A stretch of DNA of 63,365 bases, filler included, from Rhabdomonas costata (taxonomy: Eukaryota): assembly GCA_019059605.1 (NCBI GenBank). It is 42 parts of 42 records of this genome, joined end to end, with 100 filler letters (N's around TTAATTAATTAA, not from the genome) between each part and the next. Parts side by side here need not be neighbours in the genome. Positions count along the whole stretch, not along the records: positions 4,537 to 5,947 come from JAHMHO010016701.1; positions 6,048 to 7,459 come from JAHMHO010016702.1; 40 more parts are not named here. One strand, 5' to 3'. Below the pieces are notes generated by a model. That model searched no databases and had not been told where the DNA came from. It saw only the letters and a program-made list of their open reading frames with translations. Below are positions 1,513-19,778 of this stretch, piece after piece; the first letter of the stretch is position 1, and every line of letters begins with the position of its first letter. Position numbers and translations under genes: made by a program.

Positions 1513-4500
1513 GGTTGGTTGGCTTGCACATCACCACCTTTTCGTCACATACGAAGATATTTTGTTAAAATGGCACAGAGCGAATCCTCCAGACTCAGAC
1601 TGCACATCACAACCAAACAACCAAGATAGAGAGAGGATTCTCGAGTCCAGTCGGGCACAATCGTCTTGGGGTCAGTCTTGCGCCGCTCGTCGATGACCAG
1701 GTCTCTCTGAAAAATGCCAAAAACCCCGTTCAACCGAGGGAATTTTCCAACCCAAACGCAAGCTTATCTGCTCCACCTCGTCCTGCTTCATAGCTGACTT
1801 GTGCTTGAAGTGCACTCTTGCTTGTACTTGGCTTGGTGTTTAGGGATCTGGGTTTTGGTGGTGGTGGCGGCGGAATTAAATGATACGCTGCAAGGAAACA
1901 ACCGCGTTCTTTCCACTTGTGGGAAGCAGAGTGCATCAACTGAAGGAAGGGATGAGCAGAAATTTAGGATTTTATGCAGGATTTTATGCGAGTTTTCCTT
2001 CAACCCTGCGACCCGCGGGGCATTCATGTGGTGAGCAGGCACCGACAGTGCTCTAGGACCCCCCGTGTGAGAACCCAGCTGCGTGCGTCTGTGCTTGGAC
2101 AACTTTTCTTTTTTCTTCCCCTTTCTTCCCGTTTTTCACCTTCTCCTTCGCCCACAAACATGTACAAACATACACACTGTATCAGCCACCCAAACCATAA
2201 GCAAGAGGGACAAAAAAGCGAATCAATGAATTGTCCAGGAAAATGGTTGTGAACAAGGCCACAAGAAGAGGGGGCAGGAAAGGAGCCGATAAAGGGGTGA
2301 GGAAGGGGGGCAGGGAATGCAAGGCCAGAGCCCGTTGGGACGGTCGTAACAAAGCTAAAAGCACACATCACCATTCGGGAGGGTTGTATCTCGGTCAAGG
2401 GCTGACCTGCCTTCTTCTCCATCTCAGATTGAAGCTTCTCATAATACAAGAAGTGCCGTTCCATGATAGTTGCGTCCACCGTGAGGAACTCAGAGAAAAC
2501 CCTAGAACACCGTCAACTCCCCTTATTTCACAGCCCGACCAGCCAATAGTAGAACAAGGAAAGGACTTGACCCCAGCCTCAACGTCACCACACAAAAAGC
2601 CTGCATCACATCAACAGGGCAACGGTTTGAAATGCGGATGCCATCGGGATACATGTACCGCCCCTCACCCGACACCCTTATTCACCCTAACACAGGGGGG
2701 ATTCTGCTTGGCTTCTCCGGATTCATCCTGATTGGGCAATTTTCAATACGGTCTGCAAAGACAGCCTCAAACAGTTAATCTTAAAATTTACCTTTTTGGA
2801 CCAAGTGTCTTCGCATTTGCTCCAAACAGTCTCCAAATGACTTACCAAAAAAGCGCTCGAATGCCACCTAACTTTTTGAACCCCCCCCCCGTCCCCCACA
2901 AAAAACAGGGGACGAAAGTCTCTTNNNNNNNNNNNNNNNNNNNNNNNNNNNNNNNNNNNNNNNNNNNNTTAATTAATTAANNNNNNNNNNNNNNNNNNNN
3001 NNNNNNNNNNNNNNNNNNNNNNNNGGGTTGGGGTTGAGAAGTGAAGGCAGGCCTTTTTGGAAGCCTCCGTTCTTGAGGGAGAGCACTTCGTTTTTCCACT
3101 TCTCATTCATCATGTTCTTACCATCATTGGTCGCAAGCGATGGAAGAATTGTGTTCGGGACATCGAAATGACCCCCTCAACTTAACTCAACCTGCCCGCG
3201 GTGGCAAACCCGAAGTGATGGTTCTGGGCTCTAAGGAGCCTTGAGCGCGAAAAGCAAAAGAGATTCGTCAAGTCTGCAGAGAACGACACCAGCGGCAGTG
3301 TATGCAGTGGAAGGAAGCACACCACTCCGAGAAAGCAGCGCCCTCTCCTGAGGTCGGGGAGCACGGAACTTTCCTGGAGTTCTCCTTAGAAAAGAGAGAT
3401 ACAAGAAGCTAGAGCTTTAAGGGGAGCACTTTCTCGCCGCGGGTGAAGGAAAACCACAAAATCGTCACTGCAGCAAGAAGGTGATTCCATTCCAGATTCC
3501 TAAACGGCTACCATAATGCCCCCCCCCCAAAGAAATAGAAGTGTTCCACCAATCGCAATAAAGATACAACGCGATGGTGACCACCCCGGGTGGGCTGGTC
3601 TGTTGCTCGCCCATTGCAACGCTTACATCACCCTTTGCAAAAGTGTAGCCTTTGTGGGGAAATAAGAAAGAGAAATGATACAAAGGTAGGTAGGATGAGG
3701 TTTTTGGTGAGTATGGTTTGGGTGTGTCACGGAGCGAAGTGGAGGAGTGGCTACTCAACTGCAATGGAATGGAATGAGCTCAGGAGTGAAGCATAGATAG
3801 GCCTTCGATTTCATTTCAGTAGGTTCGAAAAGGGGACAAACTGGCAGGGGAAGGGAGAGAGAATAGGGAACGTCAGAGTTGCGGTGGGAATGGAGACGTG
3901 CGGGAACAGCTTTCATTTCCCTTTCCTTCCCCAATACCAACCGACACCCCTTCTTTCGATCTGCTTCCCTCTTCCAGTCCAAAGTCTGCTTGTGAGTGAG
4001 TCGGCGGTGAGGAGGGGGGAGAGGAGGAGAAACCGTCTCAAAGACCCCTGCGCGGTTGCCTGCCAGTACAATGCTGATCAGGGCGGACACGGCCAGGCTC
4101 TGGGGAAGGTGCTCCAAGGGAGAGGCCGAGTTGGCGATCTGCTGCAAAGTCTTGCTGTGGGGATCGGGCTGCTCCGGATGGCTGGCTTGCAAAAAGGGCG
4201 CCGTCCGCCGTCTTTTAAAGCCTTTGTTTTGGGGTTGCACTTGGCTGGTAATGTTCCTCCATTCAGTGGCAGCCCCCAAAAGGAAACTTCACGAAGGTGA
4301 ACTTCTTTCATTTCTGAGTGGATGTTACCGCTGCGAAAGTTCAATTTTCTGAAATAGAGTCGTGGTCACCAACGGTCAACTTTCTTAAAAGCATGGCCAT
4401 CATTTTTCGGCCGAAATTCTCAAGCAACAACAACAANNNNNNNNNNNNNNNNNNNNNNNNNNNNNNNNNNNNNNNNNNNNTTAATTAATTAANNNNNNNN

Positions 4501-4537
4501 NNNNNNNNNNNNNNNNNNNNNNNNNNNNNNNNNNNNT

Positions 4538-4795
4538 GTGGGTGGTTTAAATTCTGTAATAATGGCATATGATAGTTTAATGGATGCTGGAAATTCATGG
4601 GAAAAATTAGTAATATATTCGATGTTACATTGGGGAGATTCTGATACAGTAGGATGTATTGCGGCAGGATGGTATGGAGCAATATATGGATTTAAGAATG
4701 TACCTGATAATAATATTGAACATATAGAAAATAAAGAAGAATTAATAGAAATAGGAAAAAAATTATATAAAAAATATTACAAAAATAAACGTTAA
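4538..4795 (+). CDS. ADP-ribosylglycohydrolase (ARH1/DraG family), C-terminal part, probably giant-virus
   Basis: AYDSLMDAGNSWEKLVIYSMLHWGDSDTVGCIAAGWYGAIYG contains the metal-binding GDSDT motif. Intronless and AT-rich, 5'-truncated by the contig edge. Confidence 0.9.
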   Translation: MGGLNSVIMAYDSLMDAGNSWEKLVIYSMLHWGDSDTVGCIAAGWYGAIYGFKNVPDNNIEHIENKEELIEIGKKLYKKYYKNKR

Positions 4796-4825
4796 AATTA
4801 ATAAAATTTTTAATTTTATTAATTT
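4795..4825. terminator. Perfect AT-only hairpin between convergent genes (Mimivirus-type polyadenylation hairpin)
   Basis: AAATTAATAAAATT (4795-4808), TTT loop, AATTTTATTAATTT (4812-4825). It fills the gap between the two stop codons. Confidence 0.7.
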
Positions 4826-5258
4826 ATTTAAGATTATTTAATACAAACTTGTAAATATCATCACCAGACCTATTTCCTGTATATTCTTTTTCAGTATCAC
4901 CAATAACAAGACGAATAGTTGGGAATCCGCGGATATTTTTACCGCCACAACGTCTTTGTCCTTCTTCACCTTCACAAGAAATTTCACGAATAAGAACATT
5001 ATTTTTCATATAAGAATCATTATCATAACGATCTTTGAATTGTTTCCAACCATTTTCTAATAATTGACGAGAGAATCCGCACCACATAGCATAATATAAA
5101 TGAAGTTCAGCGATATGATTTTTTTTAGAATTTGACTTGTTACAAGATTTATGAATATTATATATTTTATAGTAATTATAACTGATTACAATTGCAACTA
5201 TAATTAAAATTGCAATTAATAAAACTTCAAACGTTTTATTTAAATCTAGTTTAGGCAT
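4824..5258 (-). CDS. Thioredoxin-domain protein with N-terminal TM anchor, CxxS active site, probably giant-virus
   Basis: Hydrophobic VLLIAILIIVAIVISY, active site LYYAMWCGFS, cis-Pro motif IRGFPTIRL, and EYTGNRS. Complete intronless ORF of 144 aa. Confidence 0.9.
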   Translation of the reverse strand: MPKLDLNKTFEVLLIAILIIVAIVISYNYYKIYNIHKSCNKSNSKKNHIAELHLYYAMWCGFSRQLLENGWKQFKDRYDNDSYMKNNVLIREISCEGEEGQRRCGGKNIRGFPTIRLVIGDTEKEYTGNRSGDDIYKFVLNNLK

Positions 5259-5344
5259 ATAATATGTATAATAAAATAATTTTATTATAATTTATATTGG
5301 ATTTTATTTTATATAAAAAATTTTTCAGTATATAATATATATTT

Positions 5345-5938
5345 ATGTCAAGTTCCACTCTAGATTTACCTACATACGATTTTTCTAATAAAACTTTCTA
5401 TGATCAAATTAAATATGCATTTTCAAATGGAACAGATGAGCGTCACGAAATGTTCTTACGTATTCTTACGAAACCATGTTTAACACGTAAAAATACACTT
5501 GCGAATCCAAGTTTAGCACAATTTCCGGATGCATTGGAATTATTAAAAGAAGGAAATTATACACAGAAGAACACTACCTTAAAAGTTGAAGACAATGACG
5601 TTGCACATGAAGTAGTAGATTTTGTGAAAATGATTGGATTATGGCACAGTGCATTAGATGCGTCAACATCCTTTGTATTTGAATCATCTGTATTTAATGA
5701 GATATTTACATCATTTGTTAGTACACAACGTACGATTCTGCCGTATCCGTATGGAACATTCCGTTTGACTCTTGCAGATCTTCAAAGTTTAACACGTATT
5801 GATTTATTTGATAAACGAATTGATATGTTTATAAAACGAACTGTTGCAGTAATAAATATGTATATACGATTTATATGGAATAATTATAGAACAATTTATA
5901 ATATTGGTGCTAGTATAAATGATGATTATTTAAACTAA
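5345..5938 (+). CDS. Hypothetical protein (197 aa), probably giant-virus ORFan
   Basis: Long ATG-initiated ORF in very AT-rich DNA, where chance ORFs are short. It is divergent from the thioredoxin gene across an 86-nt AT-rich spacer. Confidence 0.75.
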   Translation: MSSSTLDLPTYDFSNKTFYDQIKYAFSNGTDERHEMFLRILTKPCLTRKNTLANPSLAQFPDALELLKEGNYTQKNTTLKVEDNDVAHEVVDFVKMIGLWHSALDASTSFVFESSVFNEIFTSFVSTQRTILPYPYGTFRLTLADLQSLTRIDLFDKRIDMFIKRTVAVINMYIRFIWNNYRTIYNIGASINDDYLN

Positions 5939-6543
5939 CACCAACAANNNNNNNNNNNNNNNNNNNNNNNNNNNNNNNNNNNNNNNNNNNNTTAATTAAT
6001 TAANNNNNNNNNNNNNNNNNNNNNNNNNNNNNNNNNNNNNNNNNNNNGGTGGTTGTGGGCCAGTGACCTCAGCGCAGAGGTCACTGGCCCACAATCGTCC
6101 CCTTACACACGTCTCCTGCTTGGTCTCCACTCAAGCACAGGCCCCGAAACTGCAATAAGGAACTTCTTCAGTAAAAACAGAACTGCACAAGAAGCAACCC
6201 TCCCGTTCCCCACTTCTTCCGAAATCCCGAAATTCCATGGGTGGGACTCCACCATTCTGTTTTCCATTTTCCCTCACTCTCCCTCTCGCTTTTTGGTGCA
6301 CCCCTGCTCTTTTGCTGATGCTGAGGCTGCACAGAACTCTCTCATTATGTTTGTTCCCGGTCGATTACTTCTTTGCCAGCGGTTGAGTCCAATCCATAAT
6401 TTCGCACTTCTCTGAGCAGTGCTGTCACGCGTTACATATACTTATCTTCGGGAACGCCATGAAGCACTGCACTTGCTATGGTTGTGTGTGGGGGGGTATA
6501 TTCTCCCCTGGCTTTCGTTTACTGCTCCCCTCCCCTTCTCCAG

Positions 6544-11496: not shown

Positions 11497-12987
11497 GTGT
11501 GTTGTGTAACAGACCCTCTCCCACTGCTCTTCCCACCTTTCATCCCCGCAGCTGCTTTCTGGCTCTGTCTGACAAGATGCTATTTGAGGCCTTGTTATTG
11601 TTATTCTCTCATTACCTTCCCTGTTTGTATTCGGGTGCATTTACGGCTTAGCCCAGGATTAATAGGCCTGGCTCACACGGCCGTTTTTTTGCCAGACTTG
11701 CGTTTAGAAAAATGCCCTGAAGCCACAGATCGGAATCAACGTTGCCCTCATCCTGTCAGAAGAGATCTCATCAGAAAGGCAGGGTGAGTGGGCTAGTCCC
11801 TATTCCACTCCCAGGTCATGCTTCATCGAGGCCTTTATTTTGTGAAAAGATCGCCCACTTCACAACAATTGCTTCTGCAATAGCTCGGCAATGTCATTTT
11901 AGTTTATTGCGGGGATTTGGTTGGTGGATCCGCTGGTGGATTTTGCGGATGTCATATTTCTTCGCGTTCGTCGAAGCGCGGTCCCCCACCCCCNNNNNNN
12001 NNNNNNNNNNNNNNNNNNNNNNNNNNNNNNNNNNNNNTTAATTAATTAANNNNNNNNNNNNNNNNNNNNNNNNNNNNNNNNNNNNNNNNNNNNTGTGGTG
12101 GTGCTACGGCATTTTGAAGCCGACAAAGAAGAAGTTCTGATTTATTGCGGGAACCAGATCCAAACCCGCCCAGCCCGGCAAAGAGCGCAACGCTGGTCCA
12201 CCTCGGCAACCGCCATTCGAAGCCCTCAGGACCCTCGTTTGCCTGCTGCAGGCATTGGAGAAAACCCTCAATGAAAAGGACAAGCTGTGCCAATGGGATG
12301 AGGGCATCAAAGTGTTTTGGGGGACGCCATGTGCACATCCTTTCTTTTCACAACCGATGATCAACAACGTCAAGGAATCCATTCGGGAAGCCTTTGAGCA
12401 CGAGCAGGCCGTGAACCGTCCCCTGGAAGTCGACGGTGAACCGCCTCAGCAGCTCCGGTTGAGAGGATAGCCGTCCAGCAAGACCCCGGAGTTACAGTTG
12501 CGAAACGACCCCACACCAACCCGGAAGCAGCGGCAAGCAGCTCCTCGCCCCGCGCTCCACCCAGCGATTGTCTATCAAAGTATTTCTTTTGTGGCACACT
12601 AGACCTATTGATACAAATCGTTTTATTACAAAAGATGCACTATATAATATTTTTTCTGTTGAATTTTGCATTTTCAACAAATTTCCGTTTCTTTCGGGAA
12701 TTTCTATAATAATTCAATATCTTCAATATCTGGCGTGTTTTCTTGGGGGTAACGTCTCTCATAAGTTCTTCGCATATGTTGCTAATTGGTATAAAATTTA
12801 ACCTCAGTATCTCATCCACGTTTTATATTACTAATAATATTATATTACTTATAATTAATAATATATTACTGACATTATTAATATCATAATATTAATTTTC
12901 AATTCACTTCAATATTATAATGTTATATTTCATTGTTTTTCATGAAAGGTGTACGTGTTAAAGCATCAGTAAGTGTCAAAAGGTTGA

Positions 12988-13096
12988 AACTTTTCAGACC
13001 TTTCAAACTTTTCAAACCTTTCAGAACTTTTAGCGGTTTCAATAGTTATGATGGTTTAATGGTTTCAATGGTTTTAATAGTTTCAATAGTTTTAAA
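12988..13096. repeat. Degenerate 9-nt-period tandem array (~12 units)
   Basis: Units acttttcag, acctttcaa, acttttcaa, acctttcag ... tggtttcaa, tggttttaa, tagtttcaa, tagttttaa. Confidence 0.75.
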
Positions 13097-13604
13097 ATTA
13101 TACAAACTATAATTATATGAAAGTTAAACGAGTAAGGATCAACTCGTAGAAAAGTTGTACAAACTAAACGAGGATGATGTAATGTTGTCTGAGCAGTTGA
13201 AGCAGTACAGGATAATAGTGGAAACTTCAGAGAGAAAGCTAAACGAGATGAATAACATTCAAAACAAGAAACATCAACAAATAACCGAAACCCTTTTGCA
13301 ATTTAAGTTCAAAAGGAAAAGCTCATAAATGGAGGCGCATGACATTCAAAAAAGAGCTCCAAACATTCAAAAACCAGGTCAAAGAAACCTCATTCATCCA
13401 AACAGTCAAAGCATTCAAAACATCGCACACCAAAAAACAGAAGGTACGACAGGGTATGTGAATATTTCAAATTAAGGAAGAGAACAATAATGGTGTTCGT
13501 AAATNNNNNNNNNNNNNNNNNNNNNNNNNNNNNNNNNNNNNNNNNNNNTTAATTAATTAANNNNNNNNNNNNNNNNNNNNNNNNNNNNNNNNNNNNNNNN
13601 NNNN

Positions 13605-18278: not shown

Positions 18279-19467
18279 CGGGAACGGGAAAGACCCGGAT
18301 TATCAAGGAGAGGCTGGACAAGCTGGAGAGCAGTGAGATGATCTACCGCGTCATCAACTTCAACTCCCGCACGGACAGCAAGACCTTGCAGACGATCATG
18401 GAGCAGAGCCTTGACAAGAAGTCCGGCCGCCAGTACGGACCTCCGGGCCGAAAGAAGCTGATCTACTTCATTGATGACATCAACATGTATGCTTTTTTAA
18501 AGTGACCCCCCAACACGGGTTTTTTCTTGTCACCTGCCTGGATGTGTGTAAATTACTTTGTTATAGGCCCACCCCGGACCATTACGGGACCCAGCACTCG
18601 ATCGCGCTGCTCCGAATGCACTTCGACTACGGCTTCTGGTACGATCGCCAGAAGATGACCCTGAAGGAGGTCGTCAACGTGCAGTATCTCTCTGCAATGA
18701 ATCCTAAGGTTCAGAGTCACCACCTCCCCCACCCCCTGCTCCCATTCACATCCCCCTGCATTGACTCTTGAGGGCTTTTCTTTCTGCTCTCCATCACTCC
18801 TCTGGCTCTCACTGTTGGATTGGTCGTCTTAGGCTGGAGCTTTCATCATCCTGGACCGCCTTCAGCGGCACTACGCCACCTTCGCCTGCAGCATACCGGA
18901 GAAGTCTGACCTGCAGCTGATCTATGGGTATGCACTTTTCATGAATTTTCGTCGCTTTTAGTGGTGCAGCTCGGTTCCCGCCCGGACTTGTGCACACACA
19001 CACATGCGCACACATGGACATTGTATTTGTCCCACAGGCAAATCCTCGCGGGGCACTTCTCGGCGTTCAGTCGGGATGTCCAGCCCCTCGCTGCCCTGCT
19101 CACTTCTGCTTCGATTGACCTCCACCGCGCCGTGGCGAAGGCCTTCCTGCCCACGGCGATCAAGTTCCACTATCAGTGGAATCTTCGCGAGCTTTCCAAC
19201 ATCTGCCAGGGGTTGATGCTCAGTCAGCCCGCCACCCACGACACCCTGACCATTATCCGGATGTGGCTGCACGAGTGCGAGCGGACGTTCGCCGACCGTA
19301 TGGTGAACGAGGACGACATCAAGACCTACGACGAGCTCGCGCAGACCGTGTGCCGGCAGTACTTCGCCGAGAGCGCGCCAGTGGACGAGGTCTTTGGGAA
19401 GCCCAATCTCTTCGGGCCCTTCTTCCCCAACACGGCCGGCGGGGATGCGGAGTTCCTGTATAACCAG
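18279..19467 (+). CDS. Axonemal dynein heavy chain, AAA3 region (exons 18279-18486, 18567-18708, 18833-18927, 19038-19467)
   Basis: Walker A AGTGKT, then YGPPGRKKLIYFIDDINMP, DHYGTQ, WYDRQK, AMNPKAG, FLPTAIKFHYQWNLRELSNICQGL and WLHECERTFADR. Three GT-AG introns join in frame. Confidence 0.96.
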
Positions 19468-19778
19468 GTGTCCGATGTGACAGCTCTGTTTTTCTTGGTG
19501 GGCGGAGTGACAGGAATCTCTTCTGTTAGTATCATCAGTGTCTAACCCCCANNNNNNNNNNNNNNNNNNNNNNNNNNNNNNNNNNNNNNNNNNNNTTAAT
19601 TAATTAANNNNNNNNNNNNNNNNNNNNNNNNNNNNNNNNNNNNNNNNNNNNGTTGTTTTGGGTCTTGAATCAAACCGCGTGACACGCCTTCTCCATTTTG
19701 TGCGTTTGACATCTTTTTCGTGTGTCTTTTGATGCAGTCCGCTTTTCTCTTTGGGTCGGGGATGGTGTGCAAAAAAAG

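Follow-up and report, generated by a model that had tools for sequence, protein, structure and literature searches.

How does a contig of extreme AT content come to lie among the contigs of a eukaryotic genome assembly? The question is posed by one 1411-bp record, JAHMHO010016701.1, in a stretch of 63,365 bases from the Rhabdomonas costata assembly GCA_019059605.1; we call the whole stretch the window and this record, at positions 4537–5947, the focal contig. An original prediction, made from the sequence alone, held that the focal contig is a Nucleocytoviricota, Mimiviridae-like contig among eukaryotic ones and that it may represent an undescribed giant virus. Both parts of that prediction have been borne out by our analysis: the contig carries the end of an ADP-ribosylglycohydrolase (ARH) gene whose product is 62% identical to that of a contig in the IMG/VR database with two genes for the NCLDV major capsid protein (MCP), and its genes follow the order in which their homologues lie beside MCP genes. 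Since the closest relatives of its three genes are only 60–73% (ARH), 37% (thioredoxin, Trx) and 44% (third gene) identical, the virus is undescribed. We conclude, with a probability of about 0.92, that the focal contig is a single product of whole-genome amplification and that its template was the genomic DNA of an undescribed Imitervirales (Mimiviridae sensu lato) giant virus, co-amplified with the DNA of a eukaryotic cell.

Base composition sets the focal contig apart from everything around it, as had been claimed. Its GC fraction is 0.268, compared with 0.391–0.588 for the remaining 41 contigs of the window. The distance of its trinucleotide profile to the median profile (0.1255) is the highest in the window and approximately five times the median distance of 0.024 (median absolute deviation 0.0048), with the runner-up at 0.061.

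Gene content and synteny with capsid-bearing contigs

Three open reading frames (ORFs) occupy the focal contig: 4538–4795 on the plus strand, open at its 5′ end; 4824–5258 on the minus strand, encoding 144 aa; and 5345–5938 on the plus strand, encoding 197 aa. The original prediction described three intronless, tightly packed genes, and the gaps that it gave are exact, at 28 nt (4796–4823, GC 0.0) and 86 nt (5259–5344, GC 0.058). The description requires one amendment, in that the contig contains just one complete gene, the middle one; the ARH gene is cut on its 5′ side, and the stop of the third gene is untrustworthy. Inspection of the sequence upstream of either start revealed no purine-rich stretch resembling a Shine-Dalgarno motif, in keeping with the same prediction.

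The first frame encodes the C-terminal 82 residues and the stop codon of an ARH1-type ADP-ribosylglycohydrolase resembling mimivirus L444 (4547–4795, plus strand), cut at the 5′ end of the contig. This fragment matches PF03747 (E = 4.4e-13) over profile positions 234–286 of 287, and its best solved relative is human ARH1 (PDB 3hfw, residues 276–346, E = 2.4e-16). The two proteins have the C-terminal GDSD(T/S) stretch in common, with GDSDT of the fragment aligned to GDSDS of ARH1, an acidic stretch that we take to have a role in metal binding, while the N-terminal three quarters of ARH lie beyond the focal contig. A full-length viral homologue aligns with ARH1 end to end (E = 3e-58), and by analogy with this enzyme the viral protein would act on ADP-ribosylated arginine residues of proteins, releasing the ADP-ribose. 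A search of 5.8 billion protein clusters with the fragment returned 31 matches at 42–73% identity, with the closest relatives at 60–73% and the best, P0007, at 73%. The sole taxon-bearing source name among these matches is that of an Edafosvirus metagenome-assembled genome (MAG; P0014), which is 68% identical over 93% of the fragment and thus ranks below P0007; we take Edafosvirus to belong to the Klosneuvirinae. In PMC6582330, Edafosvirus is listed only among mimivirus genomes. A quick tree of the ARH C-terminus (112 columns) places the focal sequence on a long branch (0.59) within an open polytomy, with no supported sister, and so gives no backing to the klosneuvirus hint of the original prediction; L006, the inferred locus of P0014, is separated from the focal sequence by the midpoint root.

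A search of IMG/VR with the Trx protein led to contig L001 (L002 is its duplicate), which has a GC content of 23–32% and carries, in order, two MCP genes, a gene for a 662-aa protein (minus), Trx (plus), ARH (minus), DnaJ (plus) and patatin (minus); its ARH is the homologue to which the focal fragment is 62% identical. A second IMG/VR contig, L003, presents the mirror image, with patatin, DnaJ, ARH (plus), Trx (minus), a gene for a 482-aa protein (plus) and two MCP genes. A metagenome scan with the ARH alignment added 74 further loci (L004–L077), so that 76 loci were counted once the duplicate L002 had been dropped, and neighbouring genes were called by tblastn at E ≤ 1e-4. Conditional on ARH, through which the loci were gathered, Trx lies downstream of ARH on the opposite strand in 28 of the 64 loci with at least 600 bp of downstream sequence (within 400 bp in 25), the large protein is encoded on the ARH strand in 26 of the 36 with at least 3 kb downstream, and MCP is present in 20 of the 26 with at least 6 kb downstream. 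Upstream of ARH, DnaJ was found in 42 of 47 loci and patatin in 31 of 33. Limited search sensitivity accounts for part of the loci in which these neighbours were missed. The block patatin-DnaJ-ARH-Trx-large protein-MCP is kept across dozens of giant-virus metagenome contigs, its carriers including L001, L003, L005, L007, L011–L013, L016, L020, L022, L033 and L039. The three genes of the focal contig are arranged and oriented as in this capsid-adjacent block, ARH> <Trx large-protein>. Like the focal contig, the related contigs and loci are AT-rich, and some have a palindrome in the ARH/Trx gap; they differ from it in sequence, with identities of only 60–73% for ARH, 24–37% for Trx and 32–44% for the N-terminal domain of the large protein.

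Two of the metagenome loci, L004 and L010, have a different order, in which Trx and a fragment of the large protein precede ARH, with DnaJ downstream of it on the same strand. At least one lineage thus carries a rearranged block.

The middle gene (4824–5258, minus strand) encodes a complete 144-aa protein with an N-terminal transmembrane anchor and a PDI/TXNDC5-like thioredoxin domain (PF00085, E = 3.1e-7). The anchor corresponds to residues 9–27, where the Kyte-Doolittle 19-residue maximum reaches 2.69, and the closest solved relative of the thioredoxin domain is TXNDC5, also known as ERp46 (PDB 8eky, E = 1.6e-20). The second cysteine pair of TXNDC5-type domains is retained both in the window protein and in its L001 homologue, to which it is 36% identical. 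In contrast to TXNDC5, the window protein is single-domain and membrane-anchored and lacks the second active-site cysteine: its active-site motif, at window positions 5076–5090, is WCGFS (CXXS), with the resolving cysteine replaced by serine and CXXC absent. Among 29 syntenic Trx homologues, near-duplicates kept, 23 have CXXS and six have CXXC.

This combination of a thioredoxin fold and an N-terminal transmembrane segment is the architecture of mimivirus R443, which is described as a thioredoxin-domain protein of the virion membrane whose transmembrane domain is confined to Imitervirales homologues (PMC13186993). R443 is described with a CXXC motif, whereas the window protein has CXXS. According to the same source, knockout of R443 lowers fitness and both cysteine mutants complement like the wild type; the predominance of CXXS among R443-like proteins agrees with this published dispensability of the R443 cysteines. 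By extension from the mimivirus experiments, the window protein would have a structural role in the virion membrane.

The third frame (5345–5938, plus strand) encodes the N-terminal 197 residues of the block's large protein, a putative counterpart of mimivirus L442, and is probably cut by the contig end. No Pfam family matched it. In a full HMMER scan of 1.84 billion representatives, two matches proved genuine: P0001, of 1312 aa (E = 6e-20), and P0002, of 729 aa (E = 1.5e-11). Both align with the third ORF from their first residues and are 32–44% identical to it over the N-terminal domain. A hidden Markov model (HMM) of this domain matched eight ORFs, every one of them at the N-terminus of a large ORF beside Trx, and after one iteration it matched 20 ORFs, or 19 without a duplicate. 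The core of the domain is NY...NDVH.E..DF....A.WH..ID. Members of this family measure 482–1312 aa and consist of the conserved N-terminal domain, a variable middle and a conserved C-terminal half. The 482-aa protein of L003 and the 662-aa protein of L001 are homologous (E = 7e-55), and the latter aligns with P0001 and P0002 across its C-terminal half; no N-terminal domain was detectable in the L003 protein. The TAA of the third ORF, at 5936–5938, overlaps a 10-nt tag at the contig end (described below), and because of this overlap and of the length of the relatives, 480–1312 aa, the third ORF most likely represents only the start of a considerably longer gene.

Other searches with the third ORF were less productive. 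IMG/VR scans with the ORF itself, its domain alignment, P0001 and P0002 confirmed no relative, and a metagenome scan with the domain alignment likewise found none. A third candidate from the HMMER scan, P0003, was dropped as a repeat-driven match to a Rib-domain, LPXTG surface protein, and ESM Atlas clusters were rejected since recognition was below the useful range and the clusters were unrelated. An AlphaFold model based on a 17-row alignment was all-helical, with a mean predicted local distance difference test score (pLDDT) of 59.5 and a predicted template modelling score (pTM) of 0.42, too poor for a fold search.

Taken on its minus strand, the focal contig presents the same three kinds of gene, in the same order and on the same alternating strands, as L442-R443-L444 of Acanthamoeba polyphaga mimivirus. 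The surroundings in mimivirus are presumably similar to those of the block as well, as we take R439–R441 to be paralogues of the capsid protein, R445 to be DnaJ-like and L446 to be patatin-like. The product of MIMI_L444 is described as an ADP-ribosylglycohydrolase (PMC2263039), and L442 is an uncharacterised 139-kDa protein found with viral DNA (PMC8299487), similar in size to the 1312-aa relative P0001. Judged by position, architecture and size, the three window genes may be orthologues of L442, R443 and L444, and the large protein would, like L442, be associated with DNA in the virion.

The palindrome, the divergent spacer and the weight of the evidence

The original prediction of a perfect hairpin between the convergent stops also holds. 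A palindrome with a 14-bp stem and a 3-nt loop (4795–4825) spans the gap between the ARH and Trx genes, its perfect 14-nt arms (4795–4808 and 4812–4825) running from stop codon to stop codon. Such a stem was reached in none of 500 dinucleotide shuffles of the focal contig, the best of which gave 12 bp. In the ARH/Trx gap of related loci, a long perfect palindrome is present in eight of 28, with stems of 8–18 bp, and for seven of these eight a comparable palindrome occurred in at most five of 200 control windows. Under the "hairpin rule" of the Mimiviridae, polyadenylation takes place at hairpin-forming palindromes whose sequence is not conserved (PMC4402537), and the focal contig displays this feature in its sole 3′ intergenic region. 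The palindrome may therefore be a shared 3′-end signal, as that rule suggests: the convergent ARH and Trx transcripts would both end at it, and the hairpin RNA would be cleaved and polyadenylated as in Mimiviridae. On the other side of the Trx gene, the 86-nt divergent intergenic region (5259–5344; 5.8% GC, 94% A+T) is a candidate bidirectional viral promoter region, from which a viral polymerase would transcribe the Trx and L442-like genes divergently.

Several results weigh against assigning the contig to an Imitervirales virus. No NCLDV (nucleocytoplasmic large DNA virus) hallmark gene, whether MCP, PolB, A32 ATPase, VLTF3 or RNA polymerase, lies on the 1.4-kb focal contig, and word-index protein searches returned no match for either the Trx protein or the third ORF. 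The likeness of the third ORF to mimivirus L442 is drawn from position, size and gene numbering. The synteny counts presuppose ARH, and Trx synteny was seen in under half of the loci, a figure that partly reflects the sensitivity of tblastn with a query 36% identical to its homologue. In folding energy (−7.7 kcal/mol, z = −2.6) the hairpin stands out only a little, three of 200 shuffles being equally stable and the stem consisting entirely of A/U, and 20 of the 28 related loci have no long perfect palindrome in the ARH/Trx gap, the genes abutting or overlapping in eight of these. Finally, in a difference from mimivirus, the early promoter motif AAAATTGA was found nowhere in the focal contig, nor with one mismatch in the 86-nt spacer. 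Since this motif marks early genes only (PMC4402537), its absence weighs little, and it would fit late genes for virion proteins, although it proves nothing in this respect.

The observations that carry the assignment are the composition of the contig, the identities of its genes, the gene order that it shares with viral contigs bearing capsid genes, and the palindrome. The closest protein relatives are those of giant viruses, not cellular ones, most of them being unnamed metagenome proteins called viral by their neighbours. The viral reading in the original prediction gains further from the identification of the third ORF as the start of the block's large protein, where it encodes the N-terminal domain, from the Edafosvirus MAG as the only taxon-named ARH match and from a scan of prokaryote genomes in which no relative was confirmed.

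Contig ends and the source of the viral DNA

All 42 contigs of the window, separated by N/TTAATTAATTAA/N spacers, measure 1408–1415 bp and are ordered by length, not by origin; the window is therefore one slice from a length-sorted, fragmented assembly of amplified DNA. A G/T-only run of at least 8 nt begins 33 of the 42 contigs (mode 10 nt), and a C/A-only run of at least 8 nt ends 23 of them (mode 10 nt); examples of such terminal runs are 1–16, 3025–3036, 4426–4436 and 6048–6059. The focal contig has a 12-nt G/T run at its 5′ end and an 11-nt C/A run at its 3′ end, so that it does share the terminal remnant of the host contigs, as originally noted. These runs are probably what remains of the degenerate G/T primer of a whole-genome amplification. 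On the focal contig, the 5′ G/T-only tag (4537–4546) and the 3′ C/A-only tag (5938–5947), which is the complement of the G/T primer and overlaps the last base of the third-ORF TAA, are thus probably derived from the primer and not from the virus. Because the terminal ~10 nt are likely primer-derived, the template sequence there, and any ORF start or stop within it, is unreliable in every contig.

A Pfam scan of the ten longest open frames on the non-focal contigs gave a single match, to dynein heavy-chain AAA-lid domains (PF17857, E = 6.8e-25) in the open frame at 18910–19542 (plus strand). This domain identifies the contig that bears it as eukaryotic, so that at least one neighbour of the focal contig is eukaryotic. 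The second compositional outlier of the window, at 12094–13504 (GC 0.391, trinucleotide distance 0.061), is AT-rich in its second half and has no stop-free frame longer than 113 aa; it looks non-coding or eukaryotic rather than viral.

How the viral DNA reached the amplified sample is a separate matter from its identity. It may have come from a virion that was ingested by the cell or attached to its surface, from a free particle sorted together with it, or from carry-over between samples, with no infection involved, and we give this explanation close to an even chance. Consumed-virus DNA has been reported in protist single-cell genomes (PMC7541821), and composition marks out just one contig of the 42 as viral. 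The window offers no counter-point to such a source, and the figure of one in 42 itself says little, given that the contigs are length-sorted.

Protist genomes are known to contain integrated DNA of giant viruses, and the fragment could be an endogenous element of this kind, residing in the host chromosome instead of being free or replicating virus DNA. Nothing specific speaks for this, although the primer tags at both ends of the contig, beyond which no flank is visible, leave room for it. Against it, the contig contains no host-like sequence, its composition has not drifted to that of the host (26.8% versus approximately 50% GC), its complete ORF is intact, its two partial ORFs are open throughout the contig with the family-conserved residues present, and the intergenic palindrome is perfect. 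We consider an endogenous element improbable and infer that the contig stems from viral DNA located inside the cell or on its surface.

Explanations that dispense with a virus fare considerably worse. If the contig were nuclear DNA of an AT-rich eukaryote, either prey or contaminant, with ARH1-like and PDI-like genes, the eukaryote-like character of both domains would follow naturally, and an amoebal origin has indeed been inferred for MIMI_L444 (PMC2263039). Gaps of 28 and 86 nt and the lack of introns are at odds with such a source, as are the confinement of the third gene's relatives to the capsid-adjacent block and the match of the three-gene order and orientation to viral contigs, and we regard it as very unlikely. 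Least credible of all is a low-GC bacterium, a phage or a protist organelle, for although dense, intronless, AT-rich genes would suit these sources and ARH and thioredoxin domains occur in bacteria too, the contig has no Shine-Dalgarno-like sequences, gave no blastn match in 50,697 phage records and no confirmed relative in a pattern scan of limited sensitivity across 185,579 prokaryote species genomes, has eukaryote-type ARH1 and TXNDC5/PDI as its closest solved relatives, and shares its gene order with capsid-bearing NCLDV contigs.

Implications of a giant-virus fragment in amplified protist DNA

For the undescribed Imitervirales virus that we favour as the origin of the contig, a more far-reaching proposal can be made, namely that it represents a deeply branching new lineage that naturally infects an uncultured protist, with no relative above ~70% identity in the protein collections searched. 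We advance this proposal tentatively and consider it rather doubtful. If true, it would amount to a direct virus-host pairing, and the natural loss of the resolving cysteine from its R443-like protein, as from most relatives of that protein, would agree with the recent experimental claim that R443 has a structural, non-redox role.

Metagenomes have revealed thousands of giant-virus lineages, and to our knowledge very few of these have a known host. Protist single-cell genomes have already been reported to contain viruses, some of them consumed, both in PMC7541821 and in a 2026 bioRxiv preprint. For curation, the focal contig flags non-host DNA in a eukaryotic assembly, in which the first and last ~10 nt of every contig in the window are probably primer-derived. 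The comparative by-products of this analysis, namely the capsid-adjacent block, the L442-like N-terminal domain and the predominance of CXXS in R443-like proteins, may aid the annotation of giant-virus MAGs. A viral fragment amplified from the DNA of a single protist is, moreover, a lead to a virus-host pairing, provided that the reads and the remaining contigs of the assembly agree.

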